Positions 8,708 through 19,182 of a stretch of 19,182 nucleotides of DNA are shown in pieces; within the stretch, counting starts at the first letter, position 1, and each line of letters opens with the position of its first letter. The position numbers were made by a program, and so were the translations under genes. Source of the DNA: a virus (taxonomy: Duplodnaviria > Heunggongvirae > Uroviricota > Caudoviricetes); the IMG/VR virus record IMGVR_UViG_2706794676_000003. One strand, written 5' to 3'. The notes beneath the pieces are model-generated. The model made no database searches. It was not told where the DNA came from and saw only the letters and a list, made by a program, of their open reading frames with translations.

Positions 8708-9685
8708 GTGAGTTCAGGTGCAAAGGTTATCTCGGCATTTATCCGGGAGACGGTTGCAGGCACTACGCCAGCAAGTGGTGACTGGAGTTTATTAAAACGC
8801 ACAAGCTGGGGAGTAAAACCCACCNNNNNNNNNNNNNNNNNNNNNNNNNNNNNNNNNNNNNNNNNNNNNNNNNNNNNNNNNNNNNNNNNNNNNNNNNNNN
8901 NNNNNNNNNNNNNNNNNNNNNNNNNNNNNNNNNNNNNNNNNNNNNNNNNNNNNNNNNNNNNNNNNNNNNNNNNNNNNNNNNNNNNNNNNNNNNNNNNNNN
9001 NNNNNNNNNNNNNNNNNNNNNNNNNNNNNNNNNNNNNNNNNNNNNNNNNNNNNNNNNNNNNNNNNNNNNNNNNNNNNNNNNAGCGCAGGTTGGCTCATGG
9101 AAAATGCAGATCCCTAACGACGGCGATATTACAGCGACCGTAACCTTTGCCGGACTGGACTGGGAATCAAAGGCCGATGATACGAATTTTATCAAAGGCG
9201 AACCTGTGGATAGTGCAGGAAAGCTACGTTATTCGTTTAAGGAGGTTTCAGCAGTAAGCCTGAATGGTGTTGCCGGAGGTAACGGTTTTTGTATCGACAG
9301 TTTTGATATTCAGTTCGATAACAAACTCCAGACACAGCGTTGTATCGGGACTGGCTCGCCTTATGCAGGAGCAAATATTCCGACTACTTTTACACCGTCC
9401 GGTACGGTGACGCTTTCATGGTCTAAAGCCGCGTGGGAAATCTGGAGTAAAACACTGACTGGAGAAACAGTTCCGTTCAGCTTCACGCTTTCGAATGGAG
9501 AGGGGGCATACACTTTCAGTTTCCCGAAGGTTCAGGTGTCAGGTGAATGGCCTGATGGGGGTAATAGCGACATTATCCAGGTTCAATTGAGCATTACCGC
9601 AGCAGATGAAGCACCTACGATAACCAGAAAAAAAAATTCCCCGGCTGCCGTGATCGCAAAAGCCAGTGCTGAGGCGATTAGTTGA
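8708..9685 (+). CDS. major tail (tube) protein (spans masked block 8825-9081)
   Basis: GTG 8708 with a perfect AGGAGG 6 nt upstream; 325-aa ORF continuous in frame through the N-run; position between the tail terminator and the G/GT chaperone genes. Confidence 0.7.
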   Translation: MSSGAKVISAFIRETVAGTTPASGDWSLLKRTSWGVKPTXXXXXXXXXXXXXXXXXXXXXXXXXXXXXXXXXXXXXXXXXXXXXXXXXXXXXXXXXXXXXXXXXXXXXXXXXXXXXXXXXXXXXXAQVGSWKMQIPNDGDITATVTFAGLDWESKADDTNFIKGEPVDSAGKLRYSFKEVSAVSLNGVAGGNGFCIDSFDIQFDNKLQTQRCIGTGSPYAGANIPTTFTPSGTVTLSWSKAAWEIWSKTLTGETVPFSFTLSNGEGAYTFSFPKVQVSGEWPDGGNSDIIQVQLSITAADEAPTITRKKNSPAAVIAKASAEAIS

Positions 9686-9733
9686 TTTTCCGTTATTCCT
9701 CCTGTGGTACTGCCCTACAGGGGGACGCATTGA

Positions 9734-10195
9734 ATGAGGTTATGGATGTTTATTCTTAATCAGAAAATTATCATTGGTGGAGAACGCTGGTTTACGCCAA
9801 TGAAGGACTTAAAACCTGTAGACGGGTTAAAACTGTTGGTGGCAAGCAGCGATAACGATCAGTATCGCTCCCGTAATGCATTAATCCGTCGCCACATTGA
9901 GAAAATGGATGCCAGTTTGCACGTCGGAACGAAGGAGTTTGATATTTCAAAGGTTTCCGAGGTGGATTCTGTTGATGATTTACTCATTGATAATGCCGCT
10001 CGTTATCTGCTGAAAGACTGGAAAGGGGTTGGTGAACTGGTTAATGGTGTTGAGGTTGCACTGGAATATACGGCAGAACGAGGGATCGCGCTGCTTAAGC
10101 AGAATCCAGAGTTGTACTGGCAGATCCTTGCAGAAGCAGCCAGCATCGCCCAGGGTAAAGAGCAGCAGAAGCAGGATACGATAAAAAAGCCATAG
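9734..10195 (+). CDS. tail assembly chaperone (lambda G analogue)
   Basis: 153-aa ORF between the major tail and tape measure genes, ending 7 nt after a slippery heptamer; G-run SD at ~9720-9724. ATG 9800 is an alternative start. Confidence 0.7.
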   Translation: MRLWMFILNQKIIIGGERWFTPMKDLKPVDGLKLLVASSDNDQYRSRNALIRRHIEKMDASLHVGTKEFDISKVSEVDSVDDLLIDNAARYLLKDWKGVGELVNGVEVALEYTAERGIALLKQNPELYWQILAEAASIAQGKEQQKQDTIKKP

Positions 10196-10503
10196 CTGCC
10201 CAGCGGTGGTTATCGGAGTTCGGGGGAGAAAGGGGGGAAAAGGCAAGATGGAAGCGAGAAAAACTCAGGTTGCCACCGATACCGGAACCAGAAATAGACC
10301 CGGTGCTTAAGGAGTTGTTGTACGCCTATTCGGTAATATCCCGTGCCCGACGTTATGCTGGAATGGCTGGGGTGCCTTTGCCTTTATCTCTGACAGAGAT
10401 AAATGAATATTTAGCCACTCATCCGGTATTGATTGAGCGCGATGAATTTGAAGCAGTGATCTTTGCACTGGATGACCAGTATTTTCAGGAGCAGTGTGTG
10501 TAG
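9734..10503 (+). CDS. tail assembly chaperone GT fusion made by programmed -1 ribosomal frameshift at 10183-10189
   Basis: The -1 frame is open from 10159 to 10503 and overlaps the end of G; a slip at A_AAA_AAG places ribosomes in that frame (..QDTIKK-AIAAQRWLSEFGGERGEK...LPPIPEPEIDPVLKELL...FQEQCV). The stand-alone T ORF in the track has only a TTG start at 10270. Confidence 0.6.
10183..10189 (+). promoter_or_regulatory. slippery heptanucleotide A_AAA_AAG for -1 frameshifting (G to GT)
   Basis: Heptamer in the X_XXY_YYZ register of the G frame (codons AUA-AAA-AAG), identical in sequence to the E. coli dnaX shift site; located 4 nt before the G stop, as in the conserved G/GT arrangement of lambda-like tails. 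Confidence 0.6.
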
Positions 10504-10623
10504 TTGTTAATTACGTACACTCTGTTACAGAGATGTGATGGTGTCTTTAATTAAATCGATGATGCTCCTGGAGAAAAGCATTGCGTGGCCTCGTAATCGC
10601 TATATCTACTATTATGTCGCCTG

Positions 10624-10648
10624 AAACCCACTTCGCGGTGGGTTTTTT
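10624..10648 (+). terminator. rho-independent terminator-like hairpin immediately upstream of the tape measure gene
   Basis: AAACCCAC (10624-10631) / TTCGCG loop / GTGGGTTT (10638-10645), a perfect 8-bp stem running into a TTTTTT tract (10643-10648); 20 nt upstream of the tape measure start codon. Confidence 0.5.
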
Positions 10649-10668
10649 GTTGTCAGGAGTTTTAATAA

Positions 10669-13600
10669 ATGGCAGAGCAAACCTCGCGTCTCGCAATAAT
10701 TATTGATAGCACTGGAGCGAAAAATAATGCTGACAATCTGACCTCCTCATTAGTCAAAATGACGCAGGCTGGGGAAACTGCTGCAAATAGCGCAGGGAAA
10801 GTGACTAAGGCAACAGAAGATGAGAAGAACGCGCTCGCAAAATTAAAAGCAGCTATTGATCCAGTTGGTGCCGCAATTGATACTGTCGGTCGACGCTATT
10901 CTGAATTAAAGAAATTTTTCGATAAAGGGCTTATTGATAAAGAAGAATATGAATTTCTTGTCCGTAAACTTAATGAAACCACAGAGGAATTGAGCGGGGT
11001 TGCGCAAGCGCAGAGAGAAGCCGAGAAGGCCGGAAAACTTGCTGCCGCCCAGCAGGAAGCGCAGGCTCAGGCCTTTCAAAGAATGCTGGACAAGATCGAC
11101 CCTCTGGCTGCGGCGCTAAGAAATCTTGAACAACAGCATGATGAACTTAATGCTGCGTTTGCATCCGGGAAAATAAATGGTTCTCAGTTTGAGAATTATA
11201 GCCGAAAAATACAGGAAACACGGCGAGAGCTTACCGGAGAGGCTCAGGCAGAGCGAGAAGCAGCAAAAGCGCATGATGAACAGGTTGTTGCTTTGCAACG
11301 TCTGATTGCTCAACTTGATCCTGTCGGAACTGCTTTTAATCGTCTGGTAGAACAACAGAAACAGCTCAATGAAGCAAAAGCTAAGGGGATGCTTTCTCCT
11401 GAAATGTATGAGGAGCTTTCTGGAAAACTTCGTGCTATGCGGAGTGAGCTTGAGGTTACTCAATCACAATTAAGCAAAACCGGAATGTCGGCAAAACAAA
11501 CGGCTTTTGCTATGCGCATGTTGCCTGTACAAATGACGGATATTGTTGTTGGGTTGTCCACTGGTCAGTCGCCATTTATGGTGTTAATGCAGCAGGGCGG
11601 CCAGCTAAAAGATATGTTCGGTGGGATTGGCCCGGCGATCAAAGGTGTAGGTTCTTATGTGCTGGGATTAATTAATCCTTTTACCCTGGCCGCAGCAGCC
11701 GTTGGGGTCTTAGGACTGGCTTACTATAAAGGCTCTCAGGAGCAGGACGAATTTAATAAATCTCTTATTCTTACCGGAAATCAGTTGGGGACAACCAGCG
11801 GGCAATTGGGCGATATAGCTCAACGTGCCGGGAATGCGGCTGATTCGACAACTGGTGCTGCGGCGGCAGTATTAAATCAGCTTGTGCGTTCGGGAAAGGT
11901 AGCGAGCAGTTCGCTGGAGCAAGTGACGACAGCGATAGTAAAAACGAGCGAAGTAACAGGAATATCAACCGAACAACTGGTTAATGACTTCAATGAAATT
12001 GCAAAGGATCCTGTCAGTGCCATATCAAAACTTAATGATCAGTACCATTTTCTGACACTTGCGACTTATAACCAGATTAAGGCGCTACAGGATGAAGGGA
12101 ACCAGCAGGAGGCCGCCCGCATTGCGACAGAAGAATACTCATCCTCAATGATCCAGCGCACCAACCAGATTAAAGAAAATCTTGGTTATCTTGAGACTGC
12201 ATGGAAAGCTGTCGCAGACTCCGCAAAATGGGCATGGGATTCCATGCTGGATATTGGCCGTGAGGCCTCCCTTGATCAAAAAATCTCAGATGTTCTCCGT
12301 CAAATTGATGAAATAGAAAAAAATACCCGACCCGGAGTTTTCGGGTTAGGTGGCATTGGAGATGGCGGAGCTCAAAATAAAAGGCTGGCACGATTAAAGC
12401 AGCAATTGGGCGTACTTCAAGCAGAAAAAATTGCTCAGGACGTACTAAATTCATCAATAAACGATTACAACAAGCGACAACAGGAAGGAATTGAACTCAG
12501 ACAGAGAGCAGATGCCTTTTCAAAACAATATCAGACCCGGGAGCAGCAGAGAGCTAGTGAACTTGCAAAACTGGAAAAGCTAAAGAATCAGTATTCAAAG
12601 GAAGAATATAATAATCTTATCGCTCAAATAAATGAGCGTTATAAAGATCCAAAGCAACCAAAGGCGAAAGGTTATTCTGATGATGCAGCCCAACGAATGA
12701 TTGATCATCTGAATCAACAGAATGCGTTACTAAGTTCACAAGCTGAGTTGACCGTTAAATTAAGTTCCTCTGAACAGGAACTGGTTAAGTGGCGTCAGCG
12801 GATTGCCGACCTAGAGTCACGACCATCATCGAAATTAACCCAGGATCAGAAATCGCTTCTCTTACACCGGGAAGAAATAACCACGTTGATGGAGAAAAAT
12901 GTTGCGATTGAAAAAAATAACAGGCTAATCAAGGAATCCGCCGAAATAACAGCATGGCGTGATTCATTGCAGGCTTCGATTGATAATCGTCAGCAGGGGT
13001 ATGATATTCAGATTGCTGGTTATGGGGTTGGCGATAAAAATCAGCAACGCCAGCAGGAATTACTGCGGATTGAACATGGATATAACAATCAGCGTCTGCA
13101 ACTTGAACGTGACTATGCAGATAAATCCCGTGGAATGTCAGATCATGTTTTTCAAGAGAAAATGCAGGCTCTGAATGATGCTCTGGAACGGGAAAAAGAA
13201 ATTGTCAGACAGAAAAACGAGCAGCTCGATATTCAGGCAGGAGACTGGGTTAGTGGTGCCTCCCAGGGATTCAATAACTGGCTGGATGACACTAAGGATA
13301 TCAGTGAGCAGATAAAATCAACCACGACTCAGATGTTTGATGGGATGACCGATGCGCTGGGTGATTTTGTCACGACAGGCAAGGCAAATTTTCGTTCTTT
13401 CGCTACTTCCGTGATTTCGGATCTTAGTCGAATAGCATTAAAGGCTTCAATTACTGGGATTTTCGACAGCATTAGTAACAGTTCTTCTGGGGGGATTTTA
13501 GGAACTATCGGGAGTGCTATTAGTAAATTTATTCCGAATGCAAAGGGCGGTGTTTATGAGTCTCCGTCATTGAGCACGTATTCGAACGGTATTTATGATT

Positions 13601-13902
13601 CCCCGCAATTTTTTGCTTTTGCAAAAGGGGCTGGTGTTTTTGGTGAGGCTGGACCGGAAGCCATTATGCCATTAACACGAACTTCCGATGGTTCTCTTGG
13701 TGTCAGAGCTATTAATAGTAAAAGTGGTAATGGAGGCGGAGATATTACCTATGCCCCTGTATACCAAATCACTATTCAAAATGACGGCCAGAATGGAGAG
13801 ATTGGCCCTCAGGCAATAAAAGCACTTATGGGGATGGTTGATCAGCGGGTGCAGGGCAATCTGTTAAATATGCGACGTGATGGGGGAATGTTAAGTGGCT
13901 AA
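10669..13902 (+). CDS. tail length tape measure protein (lambda H homologue, 1077 aa)
   Basis: Long ORF with CAGGAG SD; contains a conserved core resembling lambda H ([38 protein letters not shown]) and a lambda H-like C-terminus (..[17 protein letters not shown]...[10 protein letters not shown]); lies between G/GT and M. Confidence 0.9.
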
Positions 13903-14233
13903 TACGGAAGAATTTCACTGGTTACCAGAGGATGGAATGAAAACAGAAAATAAACCATCGATAAAAACTGTAAGATTTGGTGATGGTTATGAGCAACGAA
14001 GTCCAAATGGACTTAATCATTCTCTGCGCGTTTTCACCTGTGATTTCAAAGTTGAGGCGAATGAACGTGATTCATTTGAAAAATTTTTAGCCCGGCATGA
14101 AGGCTATAAATCTTTTTTTTGGCGCCCGCCGGGTATTAACAGAAAAATCAGAGTGGTGTGTCGAACGTGGTCAGCGACAGAACATATCACCTATACCGAT
14201 TTTTCGTGTCAGTTTGACGAAGTGGTGATCTGA
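13895..14233 (+). CDS. M: minor tail protein M (divergent lambda M homologue)
   Basis: Contains the [16 protein letters not shown] motif of lambda M; homology to the lambda M N-terminus (F-x-W...GM) extends upstream of the internal ATG 13937, favouring GTG 13895 with GGGGGA SD 7 nt upstream; stop overlaps the L start (TGATG). Confidence 0.8.
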
Positions 14234-14931
14234 TGCAGGACATACAACAGGAAACGCTGAATGAATGCATTCGTGCGGAGCAGTCGGCCAGCGTGGTGCT
14301 CTGGGAAATCGACCTGACCGAGGTAGGCGGGGATCGCTACTTTTTCTGCAATGAGCAGAACGAGAAAGGAGAGTCTGTCACCTGGCAGAGTCGGCAGTAT
14401 CAGGCCTATCCCATTCAGGGGAGTGGATTTGAGATGAACGGCAAAGGTGCCAGTGCAAGGCCAACGCTGAAAGTCTCTAATCTGCACGGCATGGTCACCG
14501 GGATGGCGGAAGACCTGCAGAGTCTGGTCGGCGGAACGGTGGTCAGGCGTAAGGTTTACGCCCGTTTTCTGGATGCGGTGAACTTCGTCAACGGAAACAG
14601 TGACGCCGATCCGGAGCAGGAGGTGATCAGCCGCTGGCGTATTGAGCAGTGCAGCGAACTGAGCGCGGTCAGTGCCTCCTTTGTACTGTCCACGCCGACG
14701 GAAACGGACGGCGCTGTTTTTCCGGGGCGCATCATGCTTGCTAATACCTGCACCTGGACCTATCGCGGTGATGAGTGCGGTTATCACGGTCCGGCTGTCG
14801 CGGATGAATATGACCAGCNNNNNNNNNNNNNNNNNNNNNNNNNNNNNNNNNNNNNNNNNNNNNNNNNNNNNNNNNNNNNNNNNNNNNNNNNNNNNNNNNN
14901 NNNNNNNNNNNNNNNNNNNNNNNNNNNNNNN
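14233..14931 (+). CDS. L: minor tail protein L (3' end lies inside masked block 14819-15069; end inferred from a 232-aa lambda L)
   Basis: Translation [47 protein letters not shown]... matches lambda gpL almost residue for residue (from memory); the stop codon is hidden in the N-run. Confidence 0.85.
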
Positions 14932-15087
14932 NNNNNNNNNNNNNNNNNNNNNNNNNNNNNNNNNNNNNNNNNNNNNNNNNNNNNNNNNNNNNNNNNNNNN
15001 NNNNNNNNNNNNNNNNNNNNNNNNNNNNNNNNNNNNNNNNNNNNNNNNNNNNNNNNNNNNNNNNNNNNNCCGGAGGAGTATTTCCGG

Positions 15088-15687
15088 ATGGCTCCGGAGG
15101 ACTGGCTGCAGGCAGAGATGCAGGGTGAGATTGTGGCGCTGGTCCACAGCCACCCCGGTGGTCTGCCCTGGCTGAGTGAGGCCGACCGGCGGCTGCAGGT
15201 GCAGAGTGATTTGTCGTGGTGGCTGGTCTGCCGCGGGGCGATTCACAAGTTCCGCTGTGTGCCGCATCTCACCGGGCGGCGCTTTGAGCACGGGGTGACG
15301 GACTGTTACACGCTGTTCCGGGACGCTTACCATCTGGCGGGAATTGAGATGCCAGATTTTCATCGTGAGGACGACTGGTGGCGTAATGGTCAGAATCTCT
15401 ATCTGGATAATCTGGAGGCTACAGGGCTGTATCAGGTGCCGTTGTCAACGGCGCAGCCGGGCGATGTGCTGCTGTGCTGTTTTGGTTCATCGGTGCCGAA
15501 TCATGCCGCCATTTACTGTGGTGACGGCGAGCTGCTGCACCATATTCCTGAACAACTGAGCAAACGAGAGAGGTATACCGACAAATGGCAGCGACGCACA
15601 CACTCCCTCTGGCGTCACCGGGCATGGCACGCATCTGCCTTTACGGGGATTTGCAGCGATTTGGCCGCCGCATCGACCTTCGTGTGA
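15088..15687 (+). CDS. K: tail tip assembly protein K (JAMM/MPN plus NlpC/P60-like)
   Basis: ATG 15088 with GGAGGA SD gives a 199-aa product (MAPEDWLQAEMQGEIVALVHSHPGG...AASTFV), the same length and near-identical sequence as lambda gpK; HSHP motif visible; 3' end overlaps I by 103 nt as in lambda. Confidence 0.85.
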   Translation: MAPEDWLQAEMQGEIVALVHSHPGGLPWLSEADRRLQVQSDLSWWLVCRGAIHKFRCVPHLTGRRFEHGVTDCYTLFRDAYHLAGIEMPDFHREDDWWRNGQNLYLDNLEATGLYQVPLSTAQPGDVLLCCFGSSVPNHAAIYCGDGELLHHIPEQLSKRERYTDKWQRRTHSLWRHRAWHASAFTGICSDLAAASTFV

Positions 15688-16232
15688 AAACGGGGGCCGA
15701 AGCCATCCGGGCACTGGCCACACAGCTCCCGGCATTTCGTCAGAAACTGAGCGACGGCTGGTATCAGGTGCGCATTGCCGGGCGTGATGCAGGCGAAAAT
15801 GAATTATCTGCCCGTCTTAATGAACCGCTGGCAAATGGTGCCGTGATCCACATCGTTCCGCGTCTGGCGGGTGCCAAAAGTGGCGGTGTGTTTCAGGCGG
15901 TGCTGGGTGCGGCGCTGATTGCGGTGGCATGGTGGAACCCTGTGGGCTGGCTGGGGGCCGCGGCTGTATCGGGTATGTATGCAGCAGGGGCCAGTATGAT
16001 CCTGGGTGGTGTGGCGCAGATGCTGGCACCGAAAGCCAGGACGCCCACGGCAGCCAGTACAGATAACGGCAAACAGAACACGTATTTCTCGTCACTGGAT
16101 AACATGGTTGCCCAGGGTAATGTTCTGCCTGTTCTGTACGGGGAAATGCGCGTGGGGTCACGTGTGGTTTCTCAGGAGATCAGCACGGCAGACGAAGGGG
16201 ATGGTGGTCAGGTTGTGGTGATTGGTCGCTGA
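15585..16232 (+). CDS. I: tail tip assembly protein I
   Basis: MAATHTLPLASPGMARICLYGDLQRFGRRIDLRVKTGAEAIRALATQLPAFRQKLSDGWYQVRIAGRD... and the C-terminus ..NVLPVLYGEMRVGSRVVSQEISTADEGDGGQVVVIGR match lambda gpI (from memory); the middle portion differs and the product is 215 aa. Confidence 0.9.
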   Translation: MAATHTLPLASPGMARICLYGDLQRFGRRIDLRVKTGAEAIRALATQLPAFRQKLSDGWYQVRIAGRDAGENELSARLNEPLANGAVIHIVPRLAGAKSGGVFQAVLGAALIAVAWWNPVGWLGAAAVSGMYAAGASMILGGVAQMLAPKARTPTAASTDNGKQNTYFSSLDNMVAQGNVLPVLYGEMRVGSRVVSQEISTADEGDGGQVVVIGR

Positions 16233-16292: not shown

Positions 16293-19182
16293 ATGGGTAA
16301 AGGCAGCAGTAAGGGGCATACCCCGCGCGAAGCGAAGGACAACCTGAAGTCCACGCAGCTGCTGAGTGTGATCGATGCCATCAGTGAAGGGCCGGTTGAA
16401 GGTCCGGTGGATGGATTAAAAAGCGTGCTGCTGAACAGTACGCCGGTGCTGGACAATGAGGGGAATACCAACATCTCCGGCGTCACGGTGGTGTTCCGGG
16501 CAGGTGAGCAGGAGCAGTCACCGCCGGAGGGGTTTGAATCCTCCGGCTCCGAGACGGTGCTGGGTACGGAAGTGAAATATGACACGCCGATCACCCGGAC
16601 CATCACGTCGGCAAACATCGACCGTCTGCGCTTTACCTTCGGTGTACAGGCACTGGTGGAAACCACCTCAAAGGGAGACAGGAATCCGTCGGAAGTCCGC
16701 CTGCTGGTTCAGATACAGCGTAACGGTGGCTGGGTGACGGAAAAAGACATCACCATTAAGGGCAAAACCACCTCGCAGTATCTGGTCTCGGNNNNNNNNN
16801 NNNNNNNNNNNNNNNNNNNNNNNNNNNNNNNNNNNNNNNNNNNNNNNNNNNNNNNNNNNNNNNNNNNNNNNNNNNNNNNNNNNNNNNNNNNNNNNNNNNN
16901 NNNNNNNNNNNNNNNNNNNNNNNNNNNNNNNNNNNNNNNNNNNNNNNNNNNNNNNNNNNNNNNNNNNNNNNNNNNNNNNNNNNNNNNNNNNNNNNNNNNN
17001 NNNNNNNNNNNNNNNNNNNNNNNNNNNNNNNNNNNNNNNNNNNNNNNNNNNNNNNNNNNNATACAGCGGTATCTGGGACGGAACGTTAAAACCAGCATAC
17101 AGCAACAACATGGCCTGGTGTCTGTGGGATATGCTGACCCACCCGCGCTACGGCATGGGGAAACGTCTTGGTGCGGCGGATGTGGACAAATGGGCGCTGT
17201 ATGTCATCGGCCAGTACTGCGACCAGTCAGTGCCGGACGGCTTTGGCGGCACGGAGCCGCGCATCACCTGTAATGCGTACCTGACCACACAGCGCAAGGC
17301 GTGGGATGTGCTCAGTGATTTCTGCTCGGCGATGCGCTGTATGCCGGTATGGAACGGGCAGACGCTGACGTTCGTGCAGGACCGACCGTCGGATAAGGTG
17401 TGGACCTATAACCGCAGTAATGTGGTGATGCCGGATGATGGCGCGCCGTTCCGCTACAGCTTCAGCGCCCTGAAAGACCGCCATAATGCCGTTGAGGTGA
17501 ACTGGATTGACCCGGATAACGGCTGGGAGACGGCGACAGAGCTTGTGGAGGATACGCAGGCCATTGCCCGTTACGGTCGTAACGTCACGAAGATGGATGC
17601 TTTTGGCTGTACCAGCCGGGGGCAGGCACACCGCGCCGGGCTGTGGCTGATTAAAACAGAACTGCTGGAAACGCAGACCGTGGACTTCAGCGTGGGCGCA
17701 GAAGGGCTTCGCCATGTGCCGGGCGATGTCATTGAAATCTGTGATGATGACTATGCGGGTATCAGCATCGGCGGGCGCGTGCTGGCGGTAAACAGCCAGA
17801 CCCGGACGCTGACGCTCGACCGTGAAATCACGCTGCCATCCTCCGGTACCATGCTGATAAGCCTGGTTGACGGAAGTGGCAATCCGGTCAGCGTGGAGGT
17901 TCAGTCCGTCACCGACGGCGTGAAGGTGAAAGTGAGCCGTGTTCCTGACGGCGTTGCTGAATACAGCGTGTGGGGGCTGAAGCTGCCGACGTTGCGCCAG
18001 CGCCTGTTCCGCTGTGNNNNNNNNNNNNNNNNNNNNNNNNNNNNNNNNNNNNNNNNNNNNNNNNNNNNNNNNNNNNNNNNNNNNNNNNNNNNGCTGACAG
18101 TCCGGGCGGTAAATGCCTGGGGACAGCAGGGCGATCCGGCGTCGGTATCGTTCAGGATTGCCGCACCGGTAGCACCGTCGCGGATTGAGCTGACGCCGGG
18201 CTATTTTCAGATAACTGCCACGCCGCATCTTGCGGTTTATGATCCGACGGTACAGTTTGAGTTCTGGTTCTCGGAAACGCGGATTACCGATATCAGGCAG
18301 GTTGAAACCACAGCCCGCTACCTTGGCGCGGGGCTGTACTGGATAGCCGCCAGTATCAATATCAAACCGGGCCATGATTATTACTTTTATATCCGCAGTG
18401 TGAACACCGTTGGCAAATCGGCATTCGTGGAGGCCGTCGGTCGGGCGAGCGATGATGCGGAAGGTTACCTGGATTTTTTCAAAGGCAAGATAACCGAATC
18501 CCATCTCGGTAAAGAGCTGCTGGAAAAAGTTGATCTGACGGAGGATAACGCCAGCAGACTGGATGAGTTTTCGAAAGAGTGGAAGGACGCTAACGATAAA
18601 TGGAATGCGATGTGGGGCGTCAAAATTGAGCAGACCAAAGACGGCAAACATTATGTCGCGGGTATTGGCCTCAGCATGGAGGACACGGAGGAAGGCAAGC
18701 TGAGCCAGTTTCTGGTTGCCGCCAATCGTATCGCGTTTATTGACCCGGCAAACGGGAATGAAACGCCGATGTTTGTGGCGCAGGGCAACCAGATATTCAT
18801 GAACGACGTGTTCCTGAAGCGCCTGACAGCCCCCGCCATTACCAGCGGTGGCAGTCCTCCGGTATTTTCCCTGACATCAGACGGAAAGCTGACCGCTAAA
18901 AATGCGGATATCAGTGGTAGTGTGAATGCGAACTCAGGAACGCTCAACAATGTCACGATTAACCAGAACTGTACGATTAAGGGCATGCTGGAGGCGACCC
19001 AGGTCAGAGGGGATTTCGTTAAAGCTGTATCAAAAGCCTTCCCGAAAAAAGTCGGTACGTGGGGTAACACGGAAACACCAGACGGTACGGTTACAGTCAC
19101 CATCAGCGATGATCATAACTTTGACCGCCAGATTATTATTCCGCCCATTATTTTTAACGGTATAGCGTATGACGATCCGGGG
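16293..19182 (+). CDS. J: tail tip / central tail fibre protein J (host specificity protein), 5' ~960 codons; runs off the window end; interrupted by masked blocks 16792-17060 and 18017-18092
   Basis: Starts [34 protein letters not shown]... as lambda gpJ; after the first N-run the J sequence continues in frame 1 ([44 protein letters not shown]...) and stays open to the end of the window. Not a single entry in the ORF track because no stop codon is present and the frame changes across the first N-run. Confidence 0.9.

Follow-up and report, generated by a model that had tools for sequence, protein, structure and literature searches.

The comparison of HK97 and HK022 by Juhala and colleagues in 2000 reportedly describes the mosaic module junctions of lambdoid phages, and in Hendrix's model such mosaic joints lie at gene boundaries. 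The Rac prophage of Escherichia coli K-12 is heavily deleted, and only remnants of it persist (ydaY, tmpR/ynaA, and lomR). Lambdoid mosaicism is a cited framework (PMC2266997; PMC3945230), and experiments have shown that phages recombine with defective prophages, Rac among them, by relaxed homologous recombination (De Paepe et al., 2014; PMC3945230). For the part of the virion concerned here, the structure of the lambda tail shows that gpM is a hexameric distal tail protein binding the gpV tube with one face, that its E-loops stack electrostatically on a ring formed by the HDI domains of gpL and the HDII domains of gpJ, and that the C-terminal coiled coil of gpH sits on the gpI tripod in the lumen (PMC10721106). 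Our literature searches returned general treatments of mosaicism and no paper describing the particular M/L joint analyzed below, which is very probably a recombination joint, old and fixed, in a Rac-family prophage of Escherichia and Shigella.

The stretch of DNA analyzed here (the window, 19,182 nucleotides) corresponds to the late (structural) part of a lambdoid prophage, with its genes on the plus strand. It opens with an IS600 end, after which come what remains of a small terminase gene, a large terminase, a portal, head genes, a tail tube, a YdaY-like gene, a tape measure of 1,077 amino acids, and then M, L, K, I, and most of J (Table 1). The proteins of M, L, K, I, and J all score above the Pfam cut-offs (PF05939, PF05100, PF14464 plus PF00877, PF06805, PF24801, and PF13550) and stand in lambda gene order. 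M begins with a GTG that overlaps the stop of the tape measure gene, and the overlapping M stop and L start that the initial annotation had placed in a TGATG can be read directly in the sequence; at this place, CTGATGCAGGA is common to the window, lambda, PhiR49_2, and mEp460 in the alignment. Both genes flanking the joint are intact, M matching PF05939 over its full length and L matching PF05100 as far as the mask. Masking affects five N runs (2799-3064, 8825-9081, 14819-15069, 16792-17060, and 18017-18092), the third of which hides the 3' end of L and the 5' end of K. These runs do not preserve length: the first four exceed the sequence found in their place in the genome of E. coli E7 by 23, 15, 8, and 10 nt, and the last, of 76 Ns, stands for ∼346-348 nt of J in E7 and in lambda. 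An apparent 484-aa L-K fusion ORF and a frame change in J are artefacts of these runs. Two long minus-strand ORFs (14209-15363 and 17227-18651) lie antisense to full Pfam-supported genes of the plus strand and were likewise put down, as artefacts, to high-GC coding sequence and N runs.

Table 1. Features around the M/L joint, with their positions in the window and the evidence for them.
Feature	Position	Strand	Evidence
IS600 end, ∼104-107 nt	1-107		
Tail tape measure gene (lambda H analogue)	10669-13902	+	Pfam TMP_2, TMP_4, Tape_meas_lam_C
Gene M (distal tail protein)	13895-14233	+	Pfam PF05939, full length, 1.2e-31
Last 28 nt of M, weak lambda similarity	14205-14232	+	Binned pairwise identities, alignment
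TGATG: M stop TGA (14231-14233) and L start ATG (14233-14235); probable mosaic joint	14231-14235	+	Sequence, ORF list
Support interval of the GC change-point, best position 14272	14216-14287	.	Change-point analysis and shuffles
First 116 nt of L, allele fixed with the joint in most Rac-like copies	14233-14348	+	Segment identities, mismatch positions
Remaining readable part of L	14349-14818	+	Pfam PF05100, 3.7e-81
Gene K (JAB/MPN and NlpC/P60 peptidase), lambda-type block; 5' end masked	15070-15687	+	Pfam PF14464 and PF00877
Gene I (tail assembly / lumen plug)	15585-16232	+	Pfam PF06805
Gene J (central tail fibre), leaves the window at its end; two N runs inside	16293-19182	+	Pfam FNIII-A_GpJ, Phage-tail_3; PF24801, PF13550

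Similarity to lambda changes abruptly at this place. A blastn comparison of the window with lambda gives no match in the 14.2 kb left of 14211, and to the right of it gives matches of 90.0, 89.3, 96.3, and 93.0% identity. The sliding identity in a MAFFT alignment rises from ∼0.4-0.5, which amounts to unalignable sequence, to 0.82-0.95 between 14193 and 14253, the rise from ∼0.45 taking ∼40 nt, so that an abrupt step lies at M/L and identity is not uniform across the two genes. The proteins follow the same division, with 41.9% identity to lambda in M and 30% in the C-terminus of the tape measure protein, and 93% in L, 96% in K, 79% in I, and 98% in the N-terminus of J. The initial annotation was right to call M a diverged homologue of lambda M (it is a PF05939 member with 42% protein identity), and it overstated the case in calling L, K, I, and J near-identical to lambda, their nucleotide identity being 89-96% and the I protein reaching only the 79% just given. 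Gene K is 94-95% identical at the nucleotide level to lambda, PhiR49_2, and mEp460, and 92-99% to the Rac-like relatives introduced below; gene I, the most variable of the block, reaches 84-95% in comparisons inside the Rac-like lineage and 97% with mEp460, but 80% with lambda. J is 93-96% identical to lambda as far as 18996, and no sequence beyond this position was matched in lambda, which suggests that the receptor-binding end of J is of a non-lambda type and that a further mosaic boundary lies within J. Phage 434, mEp460, and PhiR63_1 match J through to the end of the window, and the GC content of J, high until ∼18016, falls to ∼52% after 18093. L-K-I-J is thus a mosaic itself, in places closer to mEp460, 434, or PhiR-type phages than to lambda.

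The step in similarity coincides with one in composition. About 42-43% GC in the tape measure and M genes versus about 57-60% in L and the core of J had been estimated from hand-counted samples, and the computed values bear this out. The raw profile shows five deep GC "holes", which we rejected as real composition since they are the masked N runs. With the Ns taken into account, GC is 44.9% in the tape measure gene and 40.7% in M, the lowest in the region, and right of the joint it is 57.2% in the unmasked part of L, 58.6% over K, I, and the start of J, and 59.7% in J between 17061 and 18016. The maximum-likelihood two-segment change-point in 10669-14818 falls at 14272 (log-likelihood ratio 18.3; 2-lnL support interval in Table 1), and this ratio was reached by none of the 1,000 shuffles made with each of 3-, 30-, and 90-nt blocks (3 x 1,000; largest value 13.8). 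The same position is the strongest change-point across the whole window (log-likelihood ratio 70.6), and a uniform composition was not seen. Third codon positions show a much larger step, the GC content (GC3) of the window there being 0.38 in the tape measure gene and 0.34 in M versus 0.67 in L, 0.69 in K, and 0.73 in the readable part of J. The step persists without masking, as the unmasked copy of E. coli E7 has 0.384 (tape measure) and 0.336 (M) versus 0.665, 0.669, and 0.661 (L, K, and J), and it is absent from lambda (M 0.655, L 0.661). Along the E7 prophage, the genes between lysis and M have GC3 values of 0.32-0.55; those of L through lom reach 0.53-0.67 (0.60-0.67 except for gene I with 0.53), and stfR (0.49) and tfaR (0.46) are low again. 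L-J(-lom) is an island of high GC3 with low-GC3 genes on both sides in a Rac-type prophage, which suggests that it is the tip block that was imported.

The affiliation of the element follows from E7, whose complete genome is 99.84-99.96% identical to positions 104-14818 of the window. The annotated order of its prophage is essD, rrrD, trkG, a ParB-like gene, terminases, portal, capsid, tube, ydaY, tape measure, M, L, K, I, J, lom, stfR, and tfaR, and the prophage adjoins sitDCBA/uspF/ompN. Rac synteny and neighbourhood are thus found in E7, and the gene order also in phage record 606R9; the window itself ends short of trkG and of the attachment site. From the synteny in E7, the element is a Rac-family prophage, M is the last gene of its Rac-type block, and the tape measure gene is part of the Rac-type backbone. 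The whole arrangement is carried at 98-99% identity by ∼10 phage records (the vB_EcoS-...R series such as 606R9, and Salmonella phage SPF_0923). A 1.2-kb probe laid across the joint finds it complete, at 93-100% identity, in 715 of 5,426 complete E. coli genomes, and ∼3,600 further E. coli genomes match the probe only rightward, from 14211, 14222, 14230, or 14281; these are the left ends of homology of different lambdoid groups, and more than 250 phage records match the window solely rightward from the same range (14211-14281). In 185,579 species-representative genomes, the joint was also found in Shigella flexneri and Escherichia ruysiae (M 99 and 97% identical), the next best M being that of Providencia with 43%; a tblastn search of 50,697 phage records with M returned ten that are at least 99% identical, with the next best at 49%. 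No phage record has an M between 99 and 49% identity, and the joint predates the spread of the Rac-like lineage. A left parent, with a related M and tape measure and a cognate low-GC L, was found neither among these phage records nor among these species-representative genomes, and we infer the state before recombination rather than observe it, the nearest M outside the lineage being 49-50% identical. On these comparisons, the joint is widespread and not specific to the window, and very probably old.

Several features of the individual copies concern their present condition. The tail tube gene is frameshifted in E7, the tape measure gene carries an IS5-like ISKpn26 in OW1E2 and an internal stop in MB07011, and it is split into two CDS in 606R9, all of which look like decaying prophage copies (coordinates of the loci: L034, 15125-16086; L036, 1-3303; L038, 70-3303; L002, 14850-18083). 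Even so, their L-K-I-J blocks have stayed whole and vary among the copies, as would be expected if defective prophages serve as reservoirs of tail-tip alleles. At the left edge of the window, positions 1-107 are 100% identical to copies annotated as "IS3-like element IS600 family transposase" (IS3-family), with up to 43 copies per genome, and all Rac-like relatives begin to match at position 104, which lies within the small terminase gene of E7. With its small terminase gene disrupted in this way, the prophage copy in the window is probably defective, and the abundance of IS600 hints at a Shigella-like host. The small terminase region (106-783) is 89-93% identical to Escherichia phage Rac-SA53. 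A record of an Actinobacillus pleuropneumoniae phage, vB_Apl-pPE4, is, unexpectedly, 93.2% identical over 193-783, a similarity that would stem either from exchange across families or from contamination or misassignment of the record.

The two sides of the joint have also fared differently within the lineage. Left of ∼14349, seven of eight Rac-like relatives match the tape measure gene and M of the window at 98-100% identity, the exception being Ceylon31, which is more divergent throughout (90-95%); for the tape measure gene alone, most relatives have 98-100% and Ceylon31 92.7-94.7%. Across the joint (14211-14330), six of them show 0-1 differences. The same conservation extends into the first 116 nt of L (99-100% in six of the eight, 97.4% in E. 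ruysiae, and 90.5% in Ceylon31), a segment that is 78-88% identical to lambda, PhiR49_2, and mEp460. Divergence then begins abruptly inside L at 14349: S. flexneri has one mismatch in the ∼1,600 nt before this position and 38 in the 470 nt after it, and over 14349-14818 S. flexneri, OW1E2, MB07011, and str190 diverge by 6-8%. Over the rest of L, K, and I, identity between the relatives and the window is mostly 84-96%, and unrelated lambdoids come equally close (80-98%). Replacements starting within L at ∼14349 look like exchanges by relaxed homologous recombination, with homology on both sides. Because other lambdoids offer homology on the right of the joint and none on its left, later homologous exchange can replace only the right side. 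Exchange with co-resident lambdoid prophages would thus keep reshuffling L-K-I-J on a backbone that would be inherited clonally; among the 5,426 complete E. coli genomes, those with a copy of L have a median of two copies and up to seven. The comparison with E7 gives a further case, with 99-100% identity through K and then 88.6% in gene I, a drop that suggests a recent exchange boundary near the K/I overlap. A second breakpoint between the window and E7 inside the N run 14819-15069 was also considered and is ruled out, as K is 99.2% identical and the drop falls in I and J.

The position of the joint is shared beyond the Rac-like lineage. We compared four M lineages (Rac-like, lambda, PhiR49_2/Stx-type, and mEp460/cdtI-type) in all six pairs. 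In each of them, identity is at most 0.60 through the 3' end of the tape measure gene and M, and 0.78-0.94 or more from 14233, or from 14281 where the pair includes mEp460. The left end of the mEp460-type homology lies 48 nt inside L, and the boundary is therefore not exactly the start codon in every lineage. Low identity on the left and high identity on the right in all pairs show that several unrelated tail-shaft lineages are joined to one L-K-I-J pool, within ∼50 nt of the start of L, and the M/L boundary is accordingly a family-wide seam used by at least four unrelated M lineages. We tentatively consider, as a possibility that falls somewhat short of an even chance, that this boundary is more than a single accident and gives the lambdoid siphophages of E. 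coli a "plug-and-socket" seam that is dictated by structure and used repeatedly, in which the gpM ring would serve as a generic adaptor through its invariant core and electrostatic E-loop docking. If so, at least four unrelated tube/tape-measure lineages would draw on one freely recombining L-K-I-J pool, host-range determinants would spread across prophage backbones that are unrelated in other respects, and the seam would predict sites for engineering chimeric tails.

Taken as a history, everything through M (packaging, head, tail tube, tape measure, and M) very probably stems from a low-GC Rac-type lineage without close lambdoid relatives, and the hub and receptor-binding genes L-K-I-J, beginning with the start codon of L, come from the high-GC pool of lambda, 434, mEp460, PhiR-type, and Stx-type phages, as does lom in the unmasked E7 relative. 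A joint lying exactly at the translationally coupled M stop and L start leaves both genes intact. In the DNA it coincides with the ring-on-ring interface between gpM and gpL-gpJ, and the joint may be tolerated for that reason. Overall identity among the M proteins of the four lineages and Providencia is only 40-50%, yet in the alignment all of them share an invariant FGDGYxQR..G.N core, together with a C-terminal F-[DE]-x-V motif that is encoded in 14205-14232. Some relatives (∼10) are deposited as phage records, which is consistent with a putative compatibility of a Rac-type M with a lambda-type hub; several chromosomal copies carry the disrupting mutations listed above.

How the founding crossover took place may be approached from this same stretch. 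Identity of a mosaic flank at least 10 points above background has been used as the criterion for a trace of homologous recombination (PMC3945230). Positions 14205-14232 are 64% identical to lambda versus a background of 43-45%, a value that concerns only 28 nt coding for a conserved protein motif, and they show no excess versus PhiR49_2 (54% versus 56-57%) or mEp460 (47% versus 43-45%). This patch is possibly a candidate for crossover microhomology and could also reflect conservation of the M C-terminus at the protein level; at 28 nt and 64%, the trace is too short to count as evidence of homologous recombination. The founding event may have been a relaxed homologous recombination in a short conserved stretch at the M 3' and L 5' ends, perhaps by Rad52-type recombinases (Rac RecT, lambda Beta), or else an illegitimate recombination followed by selection for a joint at the gene boundary. 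A Chi-stimulated hotspot was considered and ruled out, as the only Chi sites of the window lie at 2643 and 3134. Both (GCTGGTGG) are on the plus strand in the portal region, where they flank the first N run, and the tail genes have none in these 19 kb. Among repeats, structured RNAs and RNA families, promoters, and terminators, no other element was found at the joint, the signals being absent or at chance level.

A joint of this kind could in principle be mimicked without recombination, if M and the tape measure gene simply evolved much faster than L, K, I, and J, the latter being held by purifying selection, and in distant comparisons L is indeed somewhat more conserved than M. We therefore followed the coupling of M and L identity at 29 loci of other species with M relatives, and at phage loci. 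Where M is 29-44% identical to the window's M, the adjacent L is only 28-58% identical (for example, M 43% and L 53% in Providencia, M 33% and L 53% in Neisseria), and the GC difference between M and L is at most 0.08. In comparisons with lambda, mEp460, and PhiR49_2, by contrast, identity is 39-50% for M and 92-95% for L, and the GC difference between M and L in the window is 0.16. An M at ∼40% thus predicts an L at ∼45-58%, not the 92-95% observed. Moreover, the identity of L-J holds at the nucleotide level and includes synonymous sites (89-96%), whereas M is unalignable in nucleotides, and the jump of 0.33 in GC3 at the same place, absent from lambda, is of a sort that selection on proteins cannot yield. 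With this control, and with identity at the synonymous level on the right and none on the left, unequal rates are excluded as far as a small residual chance. An origin in the data themselves, as an assembly chimera or an effect of masking, has a still slighter, practically negligible chance: the five N runs that do not preserve length do distort the raw GC profile, yet the closest of them begins 586 nt downstream of the joint, which is reproduced base for base in independent assemblies (E7 and 606R9, each 100% over 14211-14330).

Recombination at the M stop/L start, as the initial annotation had proposed, is hence the reading we adopt, because the composition step coincides with the homology step, lambda has no such composition step, evolutionary rate fails in the control, and L-J(-lom) forms an island. 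Its direction deserves separate consideration. If L-K-I-J were ancestral, the left arm with packaging, head, tail shaft, and M would have been swapped in from a low-GC phage; one joint alone cannot distinguish donor from recipient, and starting from a lambda-like ancestor the left block (∼14 kb in the window) would be the larger replaced unit. We regard this reversed order as unlikely, given that in E7 low GC3 flanks L-J(-lom) on both sides (0.32-0.55 in lysis genes, trkG, and head and tail genes, and 0.46-0.49 in stfR/tfaR), and that the backbone of the lineage is clonal while L-J is variable. For the favored import of L-K-I-J into a Rac-type backbone, one correction applies to the earlier proposal that the tip module was acquired separately from the shaft: the different history of L-K-I-J stands, but M itself belongs to the tail tip. 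As gpM is a tail-tip protein, the seam runs within the tip complex and divides tube, tape measure, and M from the hub and receptor-binding genes L-K-I-J.

On its own, this joint is of little weight, and we see it rather as a worked example of how one joint parts a clonal backbone from a common gene pool of tail tips across unrelated lambdoids. For the typing of E. coli prophages, it means that similarity in L-J tells nothing about the remaining phage, and it may help in the design of chimeric siphophage tails with swapped host range.

Set against the known systems, the locus resembles the mosaic junctions of lambdoid phages in that unalignable sequence gives way abruptly to ∼90% identical sequence where one intact gene meets the next, in the different composition and history of the two sides, and in the exchange among phages and prophages of one host group. 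Nothing essential sets it apart from them, except that the contrast in composition at M/L is unusually large (GC3 0.34 versus 0.67), which makes the joint visible by eye. As in the study of De Paepe et al. (2014; PMC3945230), a Rac-type and often defective prophage trades tail genes with lambdoid phages, although the experimental exchange between lambda and Rac took place there in stf/tfa and not in L-K-I-J. The E7 copy is arranged like Rac of E. coli K-12 (lysis genes, trkG, ParB-like gene, ydaY, tape measure, lom, stfR, and tfaR) and lies in the same surroundings (uspF/ompN), whereas the window, unlike the K-12 prophage, has a full late region from head to J, with an IS600 end against a truncated small terminase gene. 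With the lambda tail tip complex (gpM, gpL, gpK, gpI, gpJ, and the C-terminus of gpH; PMC10721106), it has in common the six gene families in lambda order and 93-98% protein identity in L, K, and J; in contrast, M (42%) and the C-terminus of the tape measure protein (30%) come from a different lineage, and I stands at 79%. By sequence, the tip encoded in the window is thus a chimera across both the gpM/gpL-gpJ ring interface and the gpH/gpI lumen contact. The M/L joint is an ordinary instance of textbook lambdoid mosaicism in a prophage family that has been sequenced many hundreds of times, and what it adds is a mildly new angle only, namely that the seam is common to several lineages and matches a structural interface.
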